From the sequence record NC_031934.1: a stretch of 64,000 nt of DNA; one strand, written 5' to 3'. This stretch comes from Escherichia phage MX01. The position numbers and the translations under genes are program-made. This document shows, piece after piece, positions 2,281 to 39,747 of the stretch. The notes under the pieces were generated by a model that saw nothing but the letters and a program-made list of their open reading frames with translations, made no database searches and was not told the DNA's origin. Every line of letters starts with the position of its first letter. Within the stretch, counting starts at the first letter, position 1.

Positions 2281-2484
2281 TCAATTCAGGTTACGTTTAA
2301 AAAGGTCTGCCACTTCAAGGAGCTCGTCCTTAGTAGCGATGTCGTTAAGTATTTTATATCTGATTTCTTTAAAGCGTTCTTTAAAATCCTCAGCCGCATT
2401 GATATCAAAAAATCGTTGGATTAACCGGAATTCTTTATGGACGGCTTTATCGAACAAATCAATATTCACTTTAAAGTTTGTCAT
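2281..2484 (-). CDS. hypothetical protein, 67 aa
   Basis: Co-oriented small ORF between rIIA and gene 39; no recognisable motif. Confidence 0.45.
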   Translation of the reverse strand: MTNFKVNIDLFDKAVHKEFRLIQRFFDINAAEDFKERFKEIRYKILNDIATKDELLEVADLFKRNLN

Positions 2485-2794
2485 TTTTAACTACCTCATG
2501 TTGAACATATTCTCTGGTAGAACCTAGTTCAGCCAGAATTCTTCTCATAGAACCCATTGTACTTTTGTGCTCTCTGTGGCGATACATTATCTCTAAAACC
2601 TTTTCCTGGACTACAGGAGAGAGCGCCTGGTTATCTTTAATCTTTAAGGCAATAGATTTTACAGCCTTAAGGTATTCAAGTCCCTTACCGCTTGTAGTCA
2701 CTATTCCTTCGTCCTTACAATTTCGTATGGCCGTCTCCATGAAGGATAAAGCCAGGTTGTCTGTGTTCACTATACTGTTATCTTGCATAATCAT
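2471..2794 (-). CDS. hypothetical protein, about 107 aa
   Basis: Start moved to internal ATG (M10) preceded by AGGTGA SD and an upstream promoter. Confidence 0.5.
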   Translation of the reverse strand: MIMQDNSIVNTDNLALSFMETAIRNCKDEGIVTTSGKGLEYLKAVKSIALKIKDNQALSPVVQEKVLEIMYRHREHKSTMGSMRRILAELGSTREYVQHEVVKNDKL

Positions 2795-2811
2795 ATTCTC
2801 ACCTCTAGATA

Positions 2812-2841
2812 ATCCTATCATGACTAAGGGTCTTTGTAAAC
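2812..2841 (-). promoter_or_regulatory. early sigma70-type promoter (GTTTAC-N18-TAGGAT)
   Basis: Minus-strand -35 GTTTAC right after terminator stem; weak -10. Confidence 0.45.
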
Positions 2842-6324: not shown

Positions 6325-7080
6325 TTAATTCAATACATTAACCACTGCACTACGAGGTACTACACTAAAATCACCTGCATGGACAACGTTCAGCAGCTCA
6401 ACACCGTCTTCAACCCACTGGTCTGTTACCCAACCACAGATAGGATTATCAAAAGGACGACGGATAGACACAGCAGCACACAGCAGGTCGGTAGGGTCTT
6501 GTTCTTCAACTTCTTGGAACAGGATTAACTCTGCTTCATAAACCAGGTTTTTCTCTATTTTGTTATTGTCTAAACGACGACCGTGGATGACGTAAGATTT
6601 GGCAAACCAGTCACTTTTAGCAAATTCTTCAACAATAAATTCGCCTTCGCCAAAAACATCAGTCAGAGTTTTATAACCAGAAATCAAGGCCTTAGTTTTA
6701 ATTTCAGGTTCAACCAGTTTGTAGGTTTTGCCGATTTCGATAGTCTGAGTAGTCATAGGTGATTCCTTAATTTCCGGTGGTTTAACAGGGCATACATAAG
6801 TGCTTAAAACATCAAAATCAATTAGCTGGCTTGCCATTGGGGCCAAACGAATAAATGAATCAATTTCTCGTTGTGACAAACGAATGGTGTGGATTTCCGG
6901 AACACCGCATTCTTGAACTGTTACGGATTTAATATTATCAAACTCGTCAGGTTCAATAGAAAGAATACGGAACTCGTTACCTTTAGTCATCTTTTTAAGG
7001 ATGTCATAAGCTTGGTTGTGGAGCTTAAGGGCTGAAAACGGCGTAACAATATATTTGGCATTCGGGTCAAAAGTGTTCAT
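6325..7080 (-). CDS. hypothetical protein, 251 aa (paralog of previous gene by C-terminal motif)
   Basis: C-terminus GWVTDQWVEDGVELLNVVHAGDFSVVP. Confidence 0.55.
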   Translation of the reverse strand: MNTFDPNAKYIVTPFSALKLHNQAYDILKKMTKGNEFRILSIEPDEFDNIKSVTVQECGVPEIHTIRLSQREIDSFIRLAPMASQLIDFDVLSTYVCPVKPPEIKESPMTTQTIEIGKTYKLVEPEIKTKALISGYKTLTDVFGEGEFIVEEFAKSDWFAKSYVIHGRRLDNNKIEKNLVYEAELILFQEVEEQDPTDLLCAAVSIRRPFDNPICGWVTDQWVEDGVELLNVVHAGDFSVVPRSAVVNVLN

Positions 7081-7586
7081 AATTTTCTCATTTCAATAAA
7101 ATCTACAAGTTCGGCATAGGATTTGCGGAACATTACTTGGCGGCCACCGATGACAACCTCATCTTCTGGTATTTCGTAAACAGCAAGATAGAATCCTTTA
7201 GAAGATAATTCTTCACGCTCTTCACGGGTGAACCAGCGCATCATATCATACTCACTGGCAAAAGCAAAATGGTAGAGATTAACAAACCAACCTGGAATAT
7301 AATCATCACAGCCTTCATAATCAGGCTGGTTCCACTTAGTTCTAATGGTTTTATTAGAATTTTCCACCAACAACTTGTCTTGACCTGGTAGCGGAATATT
7401 TTTATTATTGGTATGGTGGTGTCTAAAATTAGGTTTGTCGAAACCTACTTCTAATAACCAACCTTCGCTCCATTCATCAAACGAGCCTCTATACGGTGTT
7501 AATTGGCGGCACTGTTGGTGAGTGATTGCTATAACATCGCTGTTATCTAAGATACTGAACGATGACTCCACTCGATAAATTTTCAT
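7077..7586 (-). CDS. hypothetical protein, 169 aa
   Basis: ATG with AGGAG SD and canonical early promoter upstream. Confidence 0.6.
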   Translation of the reverse strand: MKIYRVESSFSILDNSDVIAITHQQCRQLTPYRGSFDEWSEGWLLEVGFDKPNFRHHHTNNKNIPLPGQDKLLVENSNKTIRTKWNQPDYEGCDDYIPGWFVNLYHFAFASEYDMMRWFTREEREELSSKGFYLAVYEIPEDEVVIGGRQVMFRKSYAELVDFIEMRKL

Positions 7587-7613
7587 TTTGTTCTCCTCGT
7601 GTTGATAGGGTAG

Positions 7614-7642
7614 ATAATATCATGTCATGAGGAGAAGTAAAC
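7614..7642 (-). promoter_or_regulatory. early promoter (GTTTAC-N17-TATTAT)
   Basis: Cassette followed by AGGAG SD and ATG of 169-aa gene. Confidence 0.6.
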
Positions 7643-7646
7643 ACTT

Positions 7647-8321
7647 TTATCGATTTTTTATACTTAATGGGTCAGGATTCTCAGGGACATCTTCCAAGCC
7701 CAAGGCGTACCGTTGAGCGTATTTCAGCATCAAGATATCCTTGGCACAGTCATGGATGGAGTCATGAGCAACAAAGCCATTCAATGTTCCGTTAGGCAGA
7801 GGACACATGCTCAATCCACGAGTTAGTGAATATGCTTCAATAGCTGTACGGATGTCACGTTGGTTCCAGAATTTAACCGGTTCTAATTTACTGGTATCGA
7901 TTTCATTCTCAGGAACCCCTTCAGAACGATAAGCATCACGAATAAGGTCGACTAAGATAGGAAAGTCAAAGGACATTCCACGACACCACATCTGTGATTT
8001 CCATTGGTCCACTTCGTTTTTACGGCAGTATTCCAGGAAATTACCAAGGCCAATAGAAGTGGACACATCAATTTCAGATGGAGCCAGGTTTTTACGTGCT
8101 TCAGGTCCTTGCTCTTTCCACCACTGTAACGTGCTTTTAGAAAACAGACGTTTATCACGTTGAGAAGCGAGGTCAAATTTAATACGAAGGCCACGTTGAG
8201 TAAGCTCTTCAAACGTTTCTACAACCTCAGGATTAGGGTCGTAAGCAATTACGGCTAGGTCGATAACCGCTGCATTTTGAGTAGTGGCAAAGGTTTCAAA
8301 GTCAATAATTATATCTTTCAT
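7647..8321 (-). CDS. dexA: exonuclease A (DEDD-type 3'-5' exonuclease)
   Basis: 224 aa; IIDFET motif and strong similarity to recalled T4 DexA. Confidence 0.85.
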   Translation of the reverse strand: MKDIIIDFETFATTQNAAVIDLAVIAYDPNPEVVETFEELTQRGLRIKFDLASQRDKRLFSKSTLQWWKEQGPEARKNLAPSEIDVSTSIGLGNFLEYCRKNEVDQWKSQMWCRGMSFDFPILVDLIRDAYRSEGVPENEIDTSKLEPVKFWNQRDIRTAIEAYSLTRGLSMCPLPNGTLNGFVAHDSIHDCAKDILMLKYAQRYALGLEDVPENPDPLSIKNR

Positions 8322-8557
8322 TTAACGTACCTCATAAGGTCTCGGATTTGGCCGACGGTGTAGTCTTCAATATAAACCGAAGAGATATTGTCGTCCATCA
8401 GATTTTGTACTGCAATAAAATCACTTTCAATCTCTTTAAGAGAGTTCAGGACAGTATGGGCCTTTTGCCTAATGCTGATATTATTTTGGTTGACCTTAAT
8501 AATATATTCAGTTTCAAATTTCAACTTATAAAATTGGTCTTTGGTTACTTTAATCAT
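8318..8557 (-). CDS. hypothetical protein, about 79 aa
   Basis: Start moved to internal ATG with GAGGA SD to avoid overlap with dda. Confidence 0.45.
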   Translation of the reverse strand: MIKVTKDQFYKLKFETEYIIKVNQNNISIRQKAHTVLNSLKEIESDFIAVQNLMDDNISSVYIEDYTVGQIRDLMRYVK

Positions 8558-8564
8558 ATTTTCC

Positions 8565-9896
8565 TCAAACGTAATAGGCATCAGTACGAGCACGAGTAAT
8601 ACTAACATAAGCTAGCTGTGAAGCTAAACTCACATCAGCCATATGCATACACGGGGTATAGATGAAACTGTTCTGGACTGTGAGGCCCTGCGATTTATGA
8701 ACAGTGCTCACCGGAAGAGCTCGAACCTTAGTAAACATTCTCTTAGCTTTCCAAAAATCAGCCCACTTAGGTTTCTTACCCGTTCCACGCATGGCTTTGT
8801 ATTCAGTAGCAACCTTAGCCAAGAAATAATGGAACTTCTCGACTGAAGCCTCATCGATGACCTTTAAATGCTCTACATAGTACTCGTCATCTTCATCGAT
8901 AGATTCTACTTGAAGGTCCCAGTAATTAATCATTTGACGAGTGCCTACATCCTTGGCAGACAAGAACAATGAGGTGTGGTTCACATCCAGAATACGAACC
9001 ATTTGGCCATTATTAAAAATGGTTTCAGAGAATTTCTTGCCGTCGTATTCAAGTTCCTTCATAAAAGGCTCTTGCATTACTAGGATTTCACCCTTAATAT
9101 AAGGCGCATCGGTTTCATAAAGCTTTTTACGAATAATACTATTCAGCTTTTCAACCGATTTATTTGTATAAGCAAACATCCTATTCTCAAACAGTGCATC
9201 AGCATCCTTTACGATGGAAAAATAATTCATCATAAAATCTTTTAATGCTGTTTGGGATTTAAAACCGTGGACCCCGTGGTCTTCGAATATACAATCTCTA
9301 AACCATCCACCATTACGGATTTCAGTAGCCACCTCAATGATAGGAGCATTACTACGCATCACTTCAGTCAAATGTAATTGTTTGATTTTTGGATGCGTAA
9401 AGAATGGAGACAACTGCGGACTACCATCACTTCCAGGTTCCACTGGCTGTAGCTGAGCTCTGTCGCCAATCCCTAATACAGTACACCACGGTGGCACGGA
9501 AGATTCGATAATCTTAAACAGCTTACCGTCAATCATCGAGCCTTCATCAACAACCAGCACATTACATTTGCTCAAGTCAGGAGCTTCGCGCTGTTCAAAG
9601 ATGTCCTGGTCTTCGTATGTGGTAGGGTTAATCTTTAAGATTCGATGGATTGTTGATGCTTCTTGACCTGCGAGTTTCGACAACACCTTTTTGGCCGCAT
9701 GGGTGGGTGCAGTCAAAATAACTCCGAGTTCACCGTTCTTGACTAGATGGTCAAGAATAAATTTGGTAAGGGTTGTTTTACCCGTACCAGCAGGGCCGTT
9801 CAATGTAATCCATTCGCCCTTACGTCGTTTAATAGCTTCAATGATTTCTTTAAAAGCCGTCCTCTGGCCGATGTTCAAGTCTTCAAATGTAATCAT
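8565..9896 (-). CDS. dda: Dda 5'-3' DNA helicase (SF1)
   Basis: 443 aa; Walker A GPAGTGKTT; strong similarity to recalled T4 Dda. Confidence 0.9.
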   Translation of the reverse strand: MITFEDLNIGQRTAFKEIIEAIKRRKGEWITLNGPAGTGKTTLTKFILDHLVKNGELGVILTAPTHAAKKVLSKLAGQEASTIHRILKINPTTYEDQDIFEQREAPDLSKCNVLVVDEGSMIDGKLFKIIESSVPPWCTVLGIGDRAQLQPVEPGSDGSPQLSPFFTHPKIKQLHLTEVMRSNAPIIEVATEIRNGGWFRDCIFEDHGVHGFKSQTALKDFMMNYFSIVKDADALFENRMFAYTNKSVEKLNSIIRKKLYETDAPYIKGEILVMQEPFMKELEYDGKKFSETIFNNGQMVRILDVNHTSLFLSAKDVGTRQMINYWDLQVESIDEDDEYYVEHLKVIDEASVEKFHYFLAKVATEYKAMRGTGKKPKWADFWKAKRMFTKVRALPVSTVHKSQGLTVQNSFIYTPCMHMADVSLASQLAYVSITRARTDAYYV

Positions 9897-14869: not shown

Positions 14870-16209
<1,340 letters not shown>

Positions 16210-22518: not shown

Positions 22519-23412
22519 TTAAAGGACCACGTCCTCATAACTTGGCATTTCGTGCTCAGAATGGATGTGGGCACCGAAATAAATGAATTCAGCCAGACCA
22601 GGATGGAATACTAAACTGGGATTCTCATGATAAATGATATGAGGTCTTGATTTCAGAATCTGATAATATTCAACCTTACTCGGTTTGAATTTAATAATCT
22701 CTACATCAGGACGATGGTCTTCACGCTTAAATGAATCATTCGGATCGGTGATATAAAGGCGAGAACCTTCAGCCGCAGCTTGGTCTACAACTCTTTCGAA
22801 TTGATAGCATTTATCTGAGATACGGAATGGATGGAAAATACCATCAATTTTAATAGGCGCTAGACCTTCAGAGTAACGCTCAATTACTGCGGGATTAATT
22901 ACCTTTTGGTCTACAAAAATCTTATCAGAGGACGCACCTCGTGACACCAGGACGTCTTTCTGACATTGATTCAAGACTGTAGTATAAATCGAACGTTCAA
23001 CTGAACCCACGTCGGTATCAATAAACTCATCGATGTAATAACGAGGAACTTCAGGGTCCATTGTAATGTTAAAGTTGAATTGTACGGTATGAGCACCATC
23101 ATAACCTGTGATATCGGTTACCAATCCTGAGCAGTCATAGTATTCGATTAACGAATCAACAACGAACTCATTTTCAGACCAAAAATGTTTACGAGTTTCA
23201 TAAGCATTTTCTTTATACCAAAGAGGTACAAAATTCAGTTCAGGAAATAATTCAATGCATTCTTTGATATCGCTCGAATTTCTAGGATAAGCCAGATAAT
23301 CACCTGGGCGAGCACGGTTTAAATGGAGTTGAAAATTGCCGTCCTTAAGGACAGCATATTCACCTGTTTCGTAACTACGCATACTGAAAATAGGAACGAT
23401 AAACAAACTCAT
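22519..23412 (-). CDS. putative hmC-DNA sugar transferase, 297 aa (occupies the T4 beta-gt position)
   Basis: Last gene of the 5-gene coupled operon; ATGA overlap with upstream gene; function inferred from synteny only. Confidence 0.55.
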   Translation of the reverse strand: MSLFIVPIFSMRSYETGEYAVLKDGNFQLHLNRARPGDYLAYPRNSSDIKECIELFPELNFVPLWYKENAYETRKHFWSENEFVVDSLIEYYDCSGLVTDITGYDGAHTVQFNFNITMDPEVPRYYIDEFIDTDVGSVERSIYTTVLNQCQKDVLVSRGASSDKIFVDQKVINPAVIERYSEGLAPIKIDGIFHPFRISDKCYQFERVVDQAAAEGSRLYITDPNDSFKREDHRPDVEIIKFKPSKVEYYQILKSRPHIIYHENPSLVFHPGLAEFIYFGAHIHSEHEMPSYEDVVL

Positions 23413-24107
23413 TTCAGGAATCCTCGAACGTAGTCAAAATCACGTTCAAACACGTGTGCACTAACCATAGTATGGGAATATGTACCCAGACCAACACCAC
23501 ACTGTTCGGCAATAAAGGCCATCAGTTTACCCTGCAGATAGAAATCCAGCTGCATAACGATAGCACAGTTCTGTGAACGCATATGAGTGTGTGCATACAG
23601 ACGTCCATCACGAATATAATATGTTACCGAATCGGTACACGGATATTCTAGGGATTCGTCAGAATCAAGGAGTGCTTGGTCTTGTTCTTGGAGAATCTGG
23701 AACACAACTCTTCGCGAGTTAGGCTTTTCTTTAAGCTCTTTAAGTAGGGCTGGGAGTTGGGCCACAATTCGAGGTCCATAGAAAGTGTTGAAGTTTGCAG
23801 GCAATACGTCACTTTTCGGCTTATCAATGAACTTAGCAACATTAGGGTATTCCTTAAATGCTTCGGCTGCGTCAGTACCACCAGAAATCATAAATTTCCA
23901 GAAAGATTCGGCATAATCATAGTTGATACGATTAATACGAGGGTCGGTGAATTTATAGGTGCTTGCATCCAGTACTTCTACCGAAGCAGAACCAATTTCA
24001 TAACAACGGCCGATACGAGAATCAACTGCAAACTGTGGAGCTTCCAGGATTTCTTCGTTCATTTGTTTAAACGCGTTTTCAAAACTAACAGCGGTAATGT
24101 GTTTCAT
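23409..24107 (-). CDS. 42: thymidylate-synthase-fold pyrimidine hydroxymethylase (dCMP hydroxymethylase-like)
   Basis: 232 aa; YPCTDSVTYYIRDGRL...MRSQN resembles TS/dCMP-HMase active-site region. Confidence 0.65.
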   Translation of the reverse strand: MKHITAVSFENAFKQMNEEILEAPQFAVDSRIGRCYEIGSASVEVLDASTYKFTDPRINRINYDYAESFWKFMISGGTDAAEAFKEYPNVAKFIDKPKSDVLPANFNTFYGPRIVAQLPALLKELKEKPNSRRVVFQILQEQDQALLDSDESLEYPCTDSVTYYIRDGRLYAHTHMRSQNCAIVMQLDFYLQGKLMAFIAEQCGVGLGTYSHTMVSAHVFERDFDYVRGFLK

Positions 24108-24640
24108 TTATTCACCTTATTTTCAATATATTCATTCAGACGTTTTAATTCTACCATATCAACATTAAGCAAATTATTATGGCCGTCGTGATTTAAGATT
24201 TTAAACACGTTTTCAAAACATGTTTCATACTTCTGGATAGTTAGGTTGAACTCATCTTTGGTTAATTTAATAAGGTCATCTTCGAAGTCTTCATCTAATG
24301 GGTTACGGGTTAAAATAACCTCAATAATATTGAATTCAGATTTAAACCCTTTCCAATCTTCCAGTTCTACATAAGGGTCCATTTCACCACGAAGGAATCC
24401 TGAGTAAACAATATTACTAGGATATCCACGGTCTAAGATGTAGACAAAATTAGGGTCTAAAAACTTATATAAGGTTTCGACTAAAGCCTTATCATTATCA
24501 GTCCCTATTGAAATGCACTTACCATTAATCTTTTTAGGGAAATCGATAAGACGATATTTCTTATCAGATAAAAGTGATTCAATTAAAGTAGACTTCCCGG
24601 AATTATCCGGGCCGTCGATAACAATGATTTTTGGTTTCAC
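24104..24640 (-). CDS. P-loop kinase (nucleoside/nucleotide-kinase-like), 178 aa
   Basis: Walker A IVIDGPDNSGKST at N-terminus; ATGA-coupled on both sides. Confidence 0.65.
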   Translation of the reverse strand: MKPKIIVIDGPDNSGKSTLIESLLSDKKYRLIDFPKKINGKCISIGTDNDKALVETLYKFLDPNFVYILDRGYPSNIVYSGFLRGEMDPYVELEDWKGFKSEFNIIEVILTRNPLDEDFEDDLIKLTKDEFNLTIQKYETCFENVFKILNHDGHNNLLNVDMVELKRLNEYIENKVNK

Positions 24641-24996
24641 GGATGATATGCCTTATAGGTTTCAAGAGTTCCTTCACGAACCATTTCTTTAAAATGGTCA
24701 GGACGGATTGCTCGGTCATCGATGATAAAAGTATAACTCGGCTTATGTGTAAGCAGATTATGATATTTCAATCCAATCTTTTCAAGGTTCTTAACCAATG
24801 CAGGAACTACTTCAACCAAGATTCGACCCGGGCCACATGAAGTCATACCACGAGCAGTGAACAATGTAATCTCATGGCCTTCATCATAAAGCTTATTAAT
24901 CATGGACACCATTTCGGTGTCCGGTTTAAAGTTTTCGTAATCACGGTCGTGGTTCCAAACCGTGATTGTGTTATCGATATCAAAACACAGATGCAT
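24637..24996 (-). CDS. HAD-superfamily phosphatase, about 119 aa
   Basis: HAD motif I FDIDNT near N-terminus; start set to ATG sharing a base with upstream stop. Confidence 0.6.
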   Translation of the reverse strand: MHLCFDIDNTITVWNHDRDYENFKPDTEMVSMINKLYDEGHEITLFTARGMTSCGPGRILVEVVPALVKNLEKIGLKYHNLLTHKPSYTFIIDDRAIRPDHFKEMVREGTLETYKAYHP

Positions 24997-26669
24997 TAAA
25001 TTTTCTTCCATTGTTTGTGGAGTTCAGTAGAACCTGTAGGTTTATATTTTACACCAGTTTCTTGGTCAAGCAAAACCCACTTATCAGGACAACGAGTAAT
25101 AATTTGGGCCGTAATAGGGTCGCGAACTTCATCAACGAATTCACCTGTGATAAGCTTACGCTTACGAGGGTGCCGCTTCAGCAGCACACTCAGTTGATAT
25201 AAACCATTGTAATAAGCACCCAGAGCTTTCAGAGGGTTATTTTTAAAGTAACCTGCTAATGCCATCCAGATAACAGCAATCCAGAGCTTGTGCTTAAATG
25301 TACACATCGGAATATCATCTAAAGGCATAACCTTTTCAATATCAACGAATACACGAGTTCCGTTACGAGTTAAGCCACCCCATAGAGGGTCAGAGTTAAA
25401 TTTGTCATAACCATCGATAGAATAAAGCACCTTAGCTTCATCATAAATCGCAGGGCCTTTAGAACTATTACCAAAATAACCACGTGGGTCGATGATTTTA
25501 ATATTACCTTCGTCCGACAACATAATATTACTGTAGTGCGGGTCGCCATGAATAAGTTGGTACGGTTCTTTATGTTCAGACAGAATTTCTAAGGCGTGAC
25601 GAAGAAGTTTTTCTGGGTCGCCTACCTTGAAGTCGTTAACATGGGTAATACCCTGTGGAGCAAAGCCTTCAATCAATCCGGCAATAGAAGCATTACGAAT
25701 AAGGACCTTGTCCAATACTTCTTTCTTAACATCAGAATACCATTGCTCATCGGACGGATTATCGATAGTTCCACCGAACGAACGTAATGCACTAATAACC
25801 TTATAAACCATTAGGACTTTAGTTTCTTTAGACATAAACCGGTAGGCATCTGCCATGGTTCGACCAAAGATACGTTCCATTTTAATGAATTCACCTGGAG
25901 CAAAGTCTACAATGCTAGGAACGAATTCAGAATCAATAGAATTGTACCAATTGATTTCTTTAGATTGGATTTCTTTACCTAATTCGTTTGTAGGTACTTT
26001 AATAGCTAGATTCTCAGTGAACTCTAATTTATTAAATTCACGGTTAATTTCAGAATCTTCATGGGCCTTAGCCAGTTTCAGTTTGTCACCAACATCAACT
26101 ACAAAGTCTAACTTACGTTCAGTCAAATGGACCATTGAATCCAGGTTGTCGGCAAGGTCTTCACCGTAATTAGAACGGTCGAAACCTGCCCAATTAGCCA
26201 CCTGATACAAACCAACTACACCACCACCGGTACCAATTTCACGCAAGTACGGTTCTTCAAATGTAAAACGACAGTCGGTCCCATAGGTATAACAGTAGTC
26301 GTTATCCCACTCAACTTTATGACCCTCAGGAATGATGTCACACCAGTTAAACAAGACGTTATGCCCGATGATATCTTCAGCAATGCAATCGATGGCATGA
26401 GCTGAACCATTGGCAACATCTACGTTACGAATAATGAATTTAGGCTTATCACTATTAATCATGTTAATGGATTTAATGTAACCCTTAACGAGGTCATTAA
26501 ATTTGCTGTGAATTACCAAAATGATTTCATCTGATTGGTTACTATACAAATCATACAAATGTTTTAGTACTGTATGCTGTTTGTAGTTAACCAATACCTT
26601 CGGGATTTCGTTAGTAATTGGATACAACCGTGAGCCAAGACCTGCGCCTAAAATAACAACCTTTTTCAT
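24996..26669 (-). CDS. bifunctional sugar-1-phosphate nucleotidylyltransferase / APH-like anomeric sugar kinase
   Basis: N-terminal ILGAGLGSRL nucleotidylyltransferase motif; C-terminal HGDPHYSNIML...IIDP kinase motif; start at ATG with GAGGA SD. Confidence 0.75.
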   Translation of the reverse strand: MKKVVILGAGLGSRLYPITNEIPKVLVNYKQHTVLKHLYDLYSNQSDEIILVIHSKFNDLVKGYIKSINMINSDKPKFIIRNVDVANGSAHAIDCIAEDIIGHNVLFNWCDIIPEGHKVEWDNDYCYTYGTDCRFTFEEPYLREIGTGGGVVGLYQVANWAGFDRSNYGEDLADNLDSMVHLTERKLDFVVDVGDKLKLAKAHEDSEINREFNKLEFTENLAIKVPTNELGKEIQSKEINWYNSIDSEFVPSIVDFAPGEFIKMERIFGRTMADAYRFMSKETKVLMVYKVISALRSFGGTIDNPSDEQWYSDVKKEVLDKVLIRNASIAGLIEGFAPQGITHVNDFKVGDPEKLLRHALEILSEHKEPYQLIHGDPHYSNIMLSDEGNIKIIDPRGYFGNSSKGPAIYDEAKVLYSIDGYDKFNSDPLWGGLTRNGTRVFVDIEKVMPLDDIPMCTFKHKLWIAVIWMALAGYFKNNPLKALGAYYNGLYQLSVLLKRHPRKRKLITGEFVDEVRDPITAQIITRCPDKWVLLDQETGVKYKPTGSTELHKQWKKI

Positions 26670-26729
26670 TATCTGTTCCTCAAGTGAATGTAGGTACATT
26701 ATACACTATTTTTAATAAATTGGTATTGC

Positions 26730-27230
26730 TTAAATCTTATCTTTACCGATTTCGATGCACTGTTCTATTGCTGCAGGCACTTTGGTCTTGAGCTTATTGA
26801 TTTGTTTCTTATAATCACGGGCTTTATCGAAGCTCTCGGTTTCGAGCATTTCGTAATAACGAGCCTCGTGGATGGAAATCTGTAGATTGATATGGTTTAC
26901 GCACATCGCATACAGTTTCTGCTTTTTGTACAAATCATCTTGGCGCTTCATTTCTGCCTGGTGTTTGGCTAGTACCGCTTCACGCTTAGACTCTTGTTCA
27001 CGTTGGAATTCGATTTCCCTTTGAGCATATTTTGCACAGTTATTACCACATTGATTATTAGCTCGAGTATACACAAGTCCAGAACCTGCACGGAATTTCA
27101 TTTCGCCATCGAATTGTTTCTGTTCAGCTGCGATACGAGCTTTACCAACTTCATCGGCCGAAACTGCATCACCATATTGGACCGCGCAACCTGATAGAAG
27201 CATACTCATTGCGATAATTAACTTTTTCAT
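26730..27230 (-). CDS. predicted lipoprotein, 166 aa
   Basis: Signal peptide with lipobox LSGC. Confidence 0.6.
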   Translation of the reverse strand: MKKLIIAMSMLLSGCAVQYGDAVSADEVGKARIAAEQKQFDGEMKFRAGSGLVYTRANNQCGNNCAKYAQREIEFQREQESKREAVLAKHQAEMKRQDDLYKKQKLYAMCVNHINLQISIHEARYYEMLETESFDKARDYKKQINKLKTKVPAAIEQCIEIGKDKI

Positions 27231-27237
27231 AATATCC

Positions 27238-27375
27238 TCAATTAAAACAGTTATACTTAATTTGTGCTATAAGAATAATCCATCCGATGATTAGTGTCGG
27301 AATCATTAGCGGAATTGCCACTGCCCAATAAACGGTAAAGGCGACCATTATAAGAAATAAAATAATTATTTTCAT
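27238..27375 (-). CDS. small hydrophobic membrane peptide, about 45 aa (not in ORF track)
   Basis: ATG-initiated ORF encoding one predicted TM helix between lipoprotein and imm-like gene. Confidence 0.35.
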   Translation of the reverse strand: MKIIILFLIMVAFTVYWAVAIPLMIPTLIIGWIILIAQIKYNCFN

Positions 27376-36781: not shown

Positions 36782-37031
36782 CGTTATAAGCATCCTTGAT
36801 GCATGATTCGGCCATATGAATTAATGTTTCTGGAGTATCATCTACCATTACATTAAAGCTAAATTCCACAGCCCAATCAGTAGCAACATAAACTTTAATA
36901 AGCTCGTTGGTATCACGAGTGCTCACAGCTTCAAACCAGAACTTAATTGTACTAGGTTGTCCATCGTCATCAATAACGATACAGTCGTGTTCTAGTTCAA
37001 GGCCTGATTTTTTAAATTCATCTAAAGTCAT
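36768..37031 (-). CDS. hypothetical acidic protein, 87 aa
   Basis: ORF between 47 and 46, overlapping both ends. Confidence 0.5.
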   Translation of the reverse strand: MTLDEFKKSGLELEHDCIVIDDDGQPSTIKFWFEAVSTRDTNELIKVYVATDWAVEFSFNVMVDDTPETLIHMAESCIKDAYNDEDF

Positions 37032-38050
37032 CGTGTAACCTCATTATAAAGTTGTGCAGCCATAGTCTTAAGGGCTTTAACATCGTCTTCAGTGTGGCCA
37101 TCAGGAAGGGCATCGATATAATCATACATCATATCCAAGAGGGACTTAACTTCATCTTCCTCTTCAGAATCATCGATATCAACACTGTTATCTACCTTAG
37201 ACACGATACGTAAAGAGTGGACAACCTTTTCAAGCTCTGATTCGAACTTAGTAAGACCGTCATCAATTTTATCGACTATAACACGAACTGCGATATTTGT
37301 AAAATCTTTGTAATCGATAGTCGCGTTAGGATAATGAATCTTACGGTGCCAACAGGTTTCATTGATGATGAAATCCATCTTATGAGTTTCTGTATCAAAA
37401 ATCCAGAAGCCTCGAGGGTCGTTCTCATCACCGGCAGTCAAGGTCCATGGTGTACCGATATACTTAACGTTTGCTGCATCAGAAATAGTGTGGAAGTGGC
37501 CTGACCAAACCTGCTTATACTTCTTAAGGAAATCAGGTTCTAAACCATGAGATTTCATTCCTTTATAGAAATAGAAACCATTTAATTCCCAGTGACCAAT
37601 ACAAAAATCTGCTGTGGTATTTTTGATATGCTCCATGATATCAGTCGTGTTTTCTTCACACATCCATGGAATCAAATCAATTTCGGTGCCATCAAAGTTA
37701 ACCGTAGTAGGTTTCTCAATAACCTTGATATGCTCATATTTACCCAGAACTTCAGAAGCAGCGTTCGGAGTCAAGGTATTTTTGTAGTGCATATCATGGT
37801 TACCAACAATGGTATACATGGTAATGCCATTTTCTTTAAGCAAATCTGAAATATGTCTGGCAAATTCCATGCACTTATGAGTAATTGCTTTACGAACATC
37901 AAAAATATCACCATACTGAATCCAGACAGTGATACCGTTTGCTTTAGAATAATTGATGGCGTCTTTAATGCCTGCCAATTGAATATTTTGCACCCAAGGG
38001 TCATCGTTCTTAACTCCAAGGTGCCAGTCACCTGTGTTTAGTATTTTCAT
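37028..38050 (-). CDS. 47: recombination endonuclease subunit (Mre11/SbcD-like phosphoesterase)
   Basis: Calcineurin-like motifs GDWHLG, GNHD, GHFH; start set to ATG MKILNTGDWH. Confidence 0.88.
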   Translation of the reverse strand: MKILNTGDWHLGVKNDDPWVQNIQLAGIKDAINYSKANGITVWIQYGDIFDVRKAITHKCMEFARHISDLLKENGITMYTIVGNHDMHYKNTLTPNAASEVLGKYEHIKVIEKPTTVNFDGTEIDLIPWMCEENTTDIMEHIKNTTADFCIGHWELNGFYFYKGMKSHGLEPDFLKKYKQVWSGHFHTISDAANVKYIGTPWTLTAGDENDPRGFWIFDTETHKMDFIINETCWHRKIHYPNATIDYKDFTNIAVRVIVDKIDDGLTKFESELEKVVHSLRIVSKVDNSVDIDDSEEEDEVKSLLDMMYDYIDALPDGHTEDDVKALKTMAAQLYNEVTR

Positions 38051-38190
38051 AAGCCAAGCGCCGTTATCGCAGTGCAAAATAAAATTATTGAAATGAACCC
38101 GTCAGGAGTGGAAAAGAATCCTATCCAACAAGCTCGTGTGAATGTATAGAATGCCATTAATAGCACGACATATCCTAAAAATAATTCCAT
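38047..38190 (-). CDS. small hydrophobic protein, about 47 aa (not in ORF track)
   Basis: ATG with GAGGAG SD; stop overlaps gene 47 start (ATGA). Confidence 0.4.
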   Translation of the reverse strand: MELFLGYVVLLMAFYTFTRACWIGFFSTPDGFISIILFCTAITALGL

Positions 38191-38975: not shown

Positions 38976-39206
38976 TTAATCCTTTGGAGTCAATTCAATA
39001 GTGAAGTAGAAATTAGCGTTCTCAACATGATAACGATAATCTACGTTATTGTCAGGAGAAGTGAATTCGATATTCCTGACGTTAAGTGGGTCAATATCAA
39101 TAGGAAGGCCTTTAACATCCCGTAATATCAATTTAATAAAATAAGGGAGTGCTTCGAAGTCTTCCATTCCATCTAAAAGTGGAGTGATATTAATCTGATG
39201 TTCCAT
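38976..39206 (-). CDS. hypothetical protein, start uncertain
   Basis: Track start is GTG inside gene 55; internal ATG chosen; no clear SD. Confidence 0.35.
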
Positions 39207-39747
39207 ATAAAAAATCCAGTTCACCAACTTTAGGTTCGGCACTCTTATCAGACCCTGGTGCTTTAGTTAAAGAGGTTTCATACTGAGTCATTTTGTCGTA
39301 GATATCTTGGATAAAGGTTTCATCTGCAATACCTACCATGTCGTCATCATTACTGTCATAGACATTATGGACGAAGTAGCTATATTTCTTTGCCATTTCT
39401 TTACGTTCTTTTTTGATACGCTGAACGAAGGCATTAAAACAAGCCATAGTGATATATGCATGTGGGTTGTCGTATTTTGTTTCGTCGAAATTGTGAAGAC
39501 CTTTAATCGAAGCTTCGATTCCATCAGCTATCATTTCCTGCCGCCAAGATTGGGTATATCCTGAGAAGTTGAAACGCTTGCTGAGGCCTTCTGCTATAAG
39601 CATAATAGCCAATCCTATAGTATCATTTTGTCTAATGATTTTATTAGGGTCGGTGTTAGCATATAATTCCTGCTTCCAACTTGTAATAGCTTTAAGAAGC
39701 TCCTTGTTATTTACATAATTATTTTTAGTCAGTTTAATTTTGGTCAT
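39190..39747 (-). CDS. 55: late-transcription sigma factor
   Basis: 185 aa; near-identical to recalled T4 gp55 core (NYVNNKELL...[29 protein letters not shown]). Confidence 0.92.

Follow-up and report, generated by a model that had tools for sequence, protein, structure and literature searches.

A five-gene operon of Escherichia phage MX01 as the likely Dhakavirus version of the arabinosyl-5-hydroxycytosine DNA modification system

We have analyzed a stretch of 64,000 nucleotides of Escherichia phage MX01 (NC_031934.1), called here the window, and in it a block of five overlapping minus-strand genes between positions 22519 and 26669. The phage is a Dhakavirus, and the operon is very likely the Dhakavirus version of the phage arabinosyl-5-hydroxycytosine system, a pathway already known from related phages (2025-2026). 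Lee et al. (Nucleic Acids Research 2026, PMC13326640) named the Dhakaviruses among the genera with a syntenic cluster. What has been established here is the orthology of the proteins, their signature residues and folds, the order of the genes and the genes that are missing. All five proteins have full-length orthologues in the Mosigviruses RB69 and HY126 and in Acinetobacter phage DLP3, in agreement with the proposal of an earlier note on this DNA that the phage encodes its own route to a nucleoside diphosphate (NDP)-sugar. The features, from the first gene of the operon to the last and followed by one accessory gene, are these:

24996..26669, minus strand: fusion gene, 557 amino acids (aa); predicted bifunctional sugar kinase / sugar-1-phosphate nucleotidyltransferase
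26025..26669, minus strand: N-terminal nucleotidyltransferase domain of the fusion, residues 1-215; motif ILGAGLGSRL...IPKVLV
24999..26030, minus strand: C-terminal APH/choline-kinase-like kinase domain of the fusion, residues 214-557; motifs HGDPHYSN and IIDPRGYFG
24637..24996, minus strand: HAD phosphatase gene, 119 aa (24637-25011 in the list of open reading frames, ORFs)
24104..24640, minus strand: thymidylate-kinase-like (TMK-like) P-loop kinase gene, 178 aa; GTG start
23409..24107, minus strand: thymidylate-synthase-fold enzyme gene, 232 aa
22519..23412, minus strand: GT-B glycosyltransferase gene, 297 aa
14291..14806, minus strand: deoxycytidine triphosphate (dCTP) pyrophosphatase gene, T4 gp56 type, accessory and outside the operon; 69.7% identical to the dCTP pyrophosphatase of HY126 over the N-terminal 122 aa of the latter

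In the pathway that we propose, all catalytic activities of which are inferred from the literature on homologues, the gp56-type enzyme would supply deoxycytidine monophosphate (dCMP) and keep dCTP out of the phage DNA. The 232-aa enzyme would then use flavin and O2 to hydroxylate dCMP at C5, kinases would bring the 5-hydroxy-dCMP to 5-hydroxy-dCTP, and the phage polymerase would put 5-hydroxycytosine in place of cytosine. The sugar would enter as arabinose-5-phosphate, most likely made by KdsD and GutQ of the host. Its phosphorylation at C1 would fall to the kinase domain at the C-terminus of the fusion, after which the HAD phosphatase would strip the 5-phosphate and the N-terminal nucleotidyltransferase domain would form uridine diphosphate (UDP)-arabinofuranose. 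The GT-B enzyme would finally add one arabinofuranose to the 5-hydroxyl, giving mono-arabinosyl-5-hydroxycytosine.

The modified base

The 232-aa protein has the thymidylate-synthase fold that the earlier note had recognized (Pfam Thymidylat_synt, E 4.8e-14). It is 79.2% identical (E 1e-125) to the HY126 enzyme (PDB 9iqc/9iqu/9ir2), 78.8% to RB69 gp48 and 71% to DLP3 gp80, while the identity to T4 gp42 was only 25% over 159 aa (E 2e-10). At the position of residue 169 of Escherichia coli ThyA (alignment A1) the window enzyme has an Asn (MRSQNC), where T4 gp42 (MRSNDV) and ThyA itself (QRSCDV) have an Asp. Asn at this position is diagnostic of 5-hydroxy-dCMP synthesis, and both the HY126 enzyme and RB69 gp48 have been shown to make 5-hydroxy-dCMP, the thymidylate-synthase homologue using flavin and O2 for this purpose (Lee et al., 2026, PMC13326640). 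The catalytic Cys is retained (YPCTDS), and an Asp is found at the position of ThyA Asn177 (QLDF), as expected for a cytosine-specific enzyme. We predict, by orthology and by these residues, that this protein is a thymidylate-synthase-fold dCMP 5-hydroxylase (5-hydroxy-dCMP synthase). The base in this phage is most likely 5-hydroxycytosine and not the 5-hydroxymethylcytosine (hmC) of the earlier note.

The alternative put forward there was that the 232-aa enzyme is a T4-like dCMP hydroxymethylase and that a non-glucose sugar is set on hmC, arabinose-5-phosphate being dephosphorylated, rephosphorylated at C1 and nucleotidylated. The position of the cluster at the gene 42/beta-gt locus speaks for it, as do the database labels of the homologues (dCMP hydroxymethylase) and the original report on RB69, in which the base was named arabosyl-hmC, i.e., arabinosyl-hmC (PMC6024577). 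We find this barely credible, given the Asn at ThyA-169 and the 79% identity to verified 5-hydroxy-dCMP synthases against 25% to T4 gp42. The hmC assignment of RB69 has itself been corrected by nuclear magnetic resonance, 18O2 labelling and liquid chromatography-mass spectrometry, and in the DNA of RB69 and DLP3 arabinose sits directly on C5 via the oxygen of 5-hydroxycytosine (PMC13326640). Besides, the reported order of the sugar steps has the kinase ahead of the phosphatase.

The sugar donor

The fusion protein matches phrog_4098 over its whole length (E 3e-268) and is the orthologue of HY126 AfhE (XAN60479; 42.5% identity, E 1e-142, full length by blastp), RB69 gp53:52 and DLP3 gp82 (44.5%, full length). 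Its reading as a nucleotidylyltransferase joined to an APH kinase was borne out by Pfam, with NTP_transferase (E 6.8e-8) and APH (E 9.1e-6) found at opposite ends. The N-terminal domain aligns to RB69 gp53 and matches PDB entries 6jq8 and 1jyk, and there are NCBIfam matches to the GlmU, AglF, MurU and RmlA N-termini, all four under their cut-offs; the C-terminal domain is 41% identical to RB69 gp52. The nucleotidyltransferase motif is identical in HY126 and DLP3, and GxGxxxRL, PK, HGDPxxSN and IDPRGYFG are conserved across the three-way alignment of the window, HY126 and DLP3 proteins.

The 119-aa protein, also correctly called a HAD phosphatase before, has the motifs FDIDNT (DxDxT), TARG and IIDD. 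Its orthologues are HY126 AfhF (XAN60478, 63.9% identity), RB69 gp51 and DLP3 gp81 (63.6%). It matches the HY126 phosphatase structure (PDB 9iqw) at E 5.9e-53 and, under the cut-off, the NCBIfam family TIGR01689 of capsule biosynthesis phosphatases (E 3.5e-14).

In the summary of He et al. (Nature Chemical Biology 2026) that is given in PMC13326640, the route for AfhE and AfhF goes from arabinose-5-phosphate to arabinose-1,5-bisphosphate, arabinose-1-phosphate and UDP-arabinofuranose. AfhE makes the bisphosphate and later the UDP-arabinose, and AfhF takes off the 5-phosphate between these two steps. By orthology, we predict that the fusion is an arabinose-5-phosphate 1-kinase and UDP-arabinofuranose pyrophosphorylase, and the HAD protein an arabinose-1,5-bisphosphate 5-phosphatase. 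The orthology to AfhE and AfhF also favors arabinose-5-phosphate as the origin of the arabinose, as had been suggested. The suggested order, dephosphorylation before phosphorylation at C1, is the reverse of the HY126 route as far as that summary describes it, and the statement that the donor pathway was undefined is out of date (Lee 2026; He 2026; Mahler 2025).

The glycosyltransferase and the P-loop kinase

The 297-aa protein is the orthologue of the first (base-proximal) arabinosyltransferase, namely HY126 XAN60474 (66.3% identity), RB69 gp47:46 and DLP3 gp79 (49.8%). Searches of Pfam, NCBIfam and PDB gave no sequence match, and only structure prediction placed the fold. The AlphaFold model (pLDDT 94.7) has a GT-B fold, and Foldseek matched it to UDP-N-acetylglucosamine 2-epimerases and GT4 retaining transferases (MshA 3c4q, SPS 6kih, BshA) at E 3e-6 to 1e-4. 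This protein lies where T4 has beta-gt; kinship with T4 beta-gt was rejected (blastp E 5.9), which supports the view that the phage does without glucosyltransferases of the T4 type. The expected lack of an alpha-gt was also found: between gp47 (37028-38077, SbcD-like) and gp55 (39190-39747, late sigma) the sole ORF has 103 aa, a result judged by ORF size, as T4 alpha-gt itself was not blasted.

The 178-aa protein carries the P-loop kinase motifs GPDNSGKST and LDRGY, and its orthologues are RB69 gp45, HY126 XAN60473 (37% identity) and DLP3 gp78, with 37-39% across relatives over the full length. The P-loop kinase of the earlier note was right as to family, with a match to phrog_761 'thymidylate kinase' at E 1e-39; the protein is probably a nucleotide kinase and not a sugar kinase. 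It fails the dTMP kinase model TIGR00041 (19.3 bits, cut-off 83.25), and no match to Pfam Thymidylate_kin was found at E 0.01. The AlphaFold model is of moderate quality (pLDDT 78.7), and the Foldseek matches (YorR, TMK, dCK and PPK2 at E ~1e-4, TM 0.45-0.58) are generic, speaking for the general fold of P-loop nucleoside/nucleotide kinases but not for any one substrate. A role as a DNA-hydroxyl kinase, as in the hypermodification of 5-hydroxymethyl-deoxyuridine, was considered and set aside, since the base does not have to carry an activated leaving group for O-glycosylation.

The kinase bears on the question of when the sugar is added. It could be that the module is pre-replicative, with the transferase acting on 5-hydroxy-dCMP, the TMK-like kinase phosphorylating arabinosyl-5-hydroxy-dCMP and the polymerase incorporating a glycosylated deoxynucleoside triphosphate. 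Lee et al. (PMC13326640) cannot tell whether nucleotide or DNA is the acceptor of the first sugar. In their work the purified DLP3 transferases were singly inactive on 5-hydroxycytosine DNA with UDP-arabinose (although a negative result in vitro is weak evidence), and the deoxynucleoside monophosphate kinase of the RB69 gp1 type already converts 5-hydroxy-dCMP to the diphosphate, which makes the extra kinase look redundant. Transferase and kinase are moreover co-distributed, with 351 phage records (50 of them Dhakaviruses) for the first and 342 for the second and matching counts per genus, and they lie side by side in two remote phage contigs from metagenomes, L007 and L008, as well as in Rhizobium phage RL38J1 (gp214-216). 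The transferase is also very acidic, with an isoelectric point (pI) of 4.98 and a net charge of -17.5, against a pI of 9.05 for T4 beta-gt; but DLP3 gp77 is acidic too and yet works on DNA. To our knowledge all characterized phage DNA glycosylations are post-replicative, following the T4 paradigm, and a pre-replicative one would be unlike any of them. On balance we regard this possibility as unlikely. If it were true, all glycosylation in the minimal Dhakavirus cluster would be pre-replicative, as no second transferase is present.

Absent genes and the identity of the sugar

No homologue of an arabinose-5-phosphate isomerase (tblastn, E 0.1), of the U32-family protein (RB69 gp50) or of the second and third arabinosyltransferases (RB69 gp3, DLP3 gp76/77) was found in the 64-kb window. 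The gap between rIIA and gene 39, which is the site of gp3 in Mosigviruses, holds only a 116-aa ORF (2471-2821, minus strand; phrog_5382, function unknown). Hit counts and identity bands likewise gave no sign of isomerase, U32 protein or second transferase in the Dhakavirus records of the phage collection. Among Escherichia phages in this collection all isomerase matches are from Mosigvirus or EcS1, and the relatives of gp3 are confined to Mosigviruses and Acinetobacter phages. Klebsiella phages that have the transferase are missing from the leading genera of isomerase matches, and for this reason we have treated the isomerase as accessory and not as defining the system.

With no second transferase, the product is predicted to be mono-arabinosylated, and with no isomerase of the phage, the supply of arabinose-5-phosphate is predicted to depend on the host; both are proposals of this analysis. 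Escherichia coli makes this compound with KdsD and GutQ for the synthesis of 3-deoxy-D-manno-octulosonic acid (Kdo). The prediction of a mono-arabinosyl product is supported by the single-transferase phages that have been reported, Thanatos being mono-arabinosylated and LC53 having a single arabinose.

Several points weigh against the proposed pathway. Fusion and P-loop kinase are its most divergent proteins: the fusion shares 42-44% with its HY126 and DLP3 counterparts, which share 57% with each other, and the P-loop kinase 37-39% against 46% between the other two, so that both window proteins are outgroups; there is a small chance of a shift in substrate. The literature searched contained no chemical analysis of Dhakavirus DNA. 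The absence of the isomerase from the rest of the Dhakavirus genome was judged from tblastn hit counts and not from the scan of a complete genome. Finally, the results of He et al. 2026 and of Mahler et al. 2025, the latter reportedly among the works that define the arabinose donor pathway, are cited here second-hand.

It could be argued that the base is 5-hydroxycytosine but that Dhakaviruses attach another sugar. The divergence of the fusion and the missing isomerase would fit, and Rhizobium phage RL38J1 pairs the same hydroxylase with hexoses (PMC13326640). We hold this to be improbable. The phosphatase, which acts on the product of the kinase, is 64% identical to both the HY126 and DLP3 enzymes, which argues against an altered substrate specificity, and the transferase is 66% identical to that of HY126. 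In the fusion, conservation extends to the catalytic motifs and to those around them. The isomerase could be dispensable in a host that makes arabinose-5-phosphate for Kdo, and no isomerase was found near the Thanatos cluster either, in the surrounding 18 kb.

The relationships of the hydroxylase and of the transferase agree with phage phylogeny, while the fusion and the kinase are divergent although the phage is much closer to HY126 than to DLP3, which suggests a cluster of mosaic origin. The P-loop kinase gene also sits between the phosphatase and hydroxylase genes and not after the transferase gene. Annotations under the matches suggest the adjacency of kinase and phosphatase in Klebsiella and Proteus phages as well, and kinase identity together with this annotated adjacency suggests that Klebsiella phages share the Dhakavirus mosaic.

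Comparison with known systems

The closest systems are those of Mosigviruses (HY126 Afh; RB69 gp45-gp55; Bas46/Bas47), with five full-length orthologues at 37-79% identity. Bifunctional fusion, HAD phosphatase and Asn169 signature are common to them and the window, and the locus is again the one that gene 43 and uvsX enclose. They have in addition the isomerase (RB69 gp55), the U32 protein (gp50) and, in the gap from rIIA to gene 39, the second arabinosyltransferase (gp3), and their P-loop kinase gene comes after the transferase gene. In DLP3 (gp76-gp83), which makes tri-arabinosyl-5-hydroxycytosine, the orthologues are at 44.5% (fusion), 63.6% (phosphatase), 71% (hydroxylase), 49.8% (transferase) and 39% (kinase). 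DLP3 lacks the U32 protein like the window, but has the isomerase and two more transferases (gp76 and gp77) that lengthen the chain on DNA. Shewanella phage Thanatos-1 and Prodigiosinella phage LC53 are the mono-arabinosylated cases with a single transferase of the first type, and their fusion, phosphatase, hydroxylase, transferase and kinase cluster next to gene 43 as in the window. Thanatos differs in the order of the kinase gene and in keeping the U32 protein.

The hmC glucosylation of T4 occupies the same slot and follows the same plan, in which a dCTPase is succeeded by an enzyme of the thymidylate-synthase fold that works on dCMP, and this by a glycosyltransferase. However, T4 hydroxymethylates where hydroxylation is predicted for the window, the transferases are unrelated in sequence, the window has no alpha-gt, and the donor, host UDP-glucose in T4, is predicted to be phage-made here. 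A further parallel is the ADP-heptose route of HldE and GmhB, in which a sugar phosphate goes to the 1,n-bisphosphate, the sugar-1-phosphate and the NDP-sugar. The logic of kinase, phosphatase and nucleotidyltransferase is the same, and in both cases one bifunctional protein (kinase/nucleotidyltransferase) is paired with a small phosphatase of the HAD type; but the kinase domain of the window fusion is APH/choline-kinase-like, with a pentose as its predicted substrate, and that of HldE is ribokinase-like. Homologues of the window phosphatase match GmhB-like structures (PMC13326640).

Arabinosylation protects phage DNA against restriction enzymes, type I CRISPR-Cas and the Brig1 glycosylase while laying it open to other defences, so the modification bears on the host range of Dhakaviruses, common coliphages of poultry and sewage, and on their choice for phage therapy. 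With five genes and a single transferase, and with neither isomerase nor U32 protein found, Dhakaviruses would have the smallest natural arabinosylation cluster, a clean system to study the role of the TMK-like kinase and the acceptor, nucleotide or DNA, of the first sugar. The labels of the operon genes in databases can also be corrected. Public annotations are misleading. For the phosphatase they read 'phosphoheptose isomerase', for the hydroxylase either 'thymidylate synthase' or 'dCMP hydroxymethylase', for the transferase either 'hypothetical' or 'RNA polymerase binding protein', and for the kinase 'thymidylate kinase'.

Two observations concern components seen in other clusters. The U32-family protein (Pfam Peptidase_U32 E 7e-11; weakly NCBIfam UbiU) was located at L002 8493-9662 (RB69 gp50), L009 9560-10696 (Thanatos TH1_065) and L008 9049-10125. 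It is the best-conserved cluster member between RB69/HY126 and Thanatos (79-82% identity); in L008, at 51% identity, it adjoins a transferase homologue, with no adjacent thymidylate-synthase homologue. The U32 members UbiU/V, TrhP and RlhA are O2-independent hydroxylases, including the C5 hydroxylation of pyrimidines, and the phage protein could provide an anaerobic route to 5-hydroxycytosine that is wanting in Dhakaviruses and DLP3. The second observation comes from L007 (GCA_040384225.1), a 383-kb contig of a distant T4-like jumbo phage, in which positions 6426-9576 contain a Flavodoxin_2 protein, a 107-aa ORF, homologues of the hydroxylase (53% identity, RSQN signature) and the transferase (37.5%), and a TMK-like kinase (36%), with no sugar-activation genes alongside. 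A flavodoxin-like gene at this place agrees with a hydroxylase that depends on flavin.

The locus and its neighbors

The ORF list and the junction sequences agree with the description of five minus-strand genes that overlap by 1-4 bp. From the fusion to the transferase the junctions are TAATG, GTGA, ATGA and ATGA. The GTGA junction (CATCCGTGAAA) and the two ATGA junctions (CTGAAATGAGT and AATAAATGAAA) are overlaps of 4 bp. At TAATG the overlap is 1 bp with the HAD start at 24996 (MHLCFDIDNT, as annotated in phage WG01) and would be 16 bp if the HAD gene begins at the upstream ATG. The ORF of the fusion reaches 26699; its likely start is at 26669 (MKKVV, with a GAGGA Shine-Dalgarno 7 nt upstream), which gives 557 aa and agrees with the WG01 annotation. 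Overlapping junctions occur at ~29% of the neighboring minus-strand ORF pairs in the window, and the translational coupling of the five genes is genuine, yet typical of T4-like phages.

The synteny claimed with the T4 gene 42/beta-gt slot was confirmed, the cluster lying between 43/imm and uvsX. The order in the window is 43, imm, a 166-aa ORF, the five-gene block and uvsX, and in T4 it is 43, imm.1, imm, 42, beta-gt, segA and uvsX. Gene 43 is indeed RB69-like, its product being 83.5% identical to that of RB69 and 61% to that of T4. Phages WG01, Bp7 and QL01 have the 4.4-kb block at 97% identity, and it is nearly complete in 50 phage records, with nucleotide identities of 94-97%. The ratios of non-synonymous to synonymous substitution (dN/dS) of the five genes against WG01 were between 0 and 0.16, indicating that all of them are kept by strong purifying selection. 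A scan for promoters and terminators between 21000 and 31000 found 27 sites against 29.2 expected from shuffled sequence, i.e., no excess. Since the candidate TATAAT immediately ahead of the fusion gene (26703-26698) lacks a good -35 or MotA box, it was not counted as a part of the operon.

The 166-aa ORF between imm and the operon (26730-27230, minus strand) has a lipoprotein-type signal (MKKLIIAMSMLLSGC), and belongs to phrog_1754 (function unknown); neither T4 nor RB69 has an equivalent at this site. A small ORF next to it (27241-27360, minus strand) is 57% identical to HY126 XAN60480 (47 aa), a conserved small gene of the '42-imm intercistronic region'. Around the accessory dCTPase gene, a DNA methyltransferase gene adjoins it (14870-15649, minus strand; phrog_56, E 3e-63), from which the phage probably also methylates its own DNA, and directly upstream of the methyltransferase gene there is a 186-aa ORF (15649-16209; phrog_8706, function unknown).

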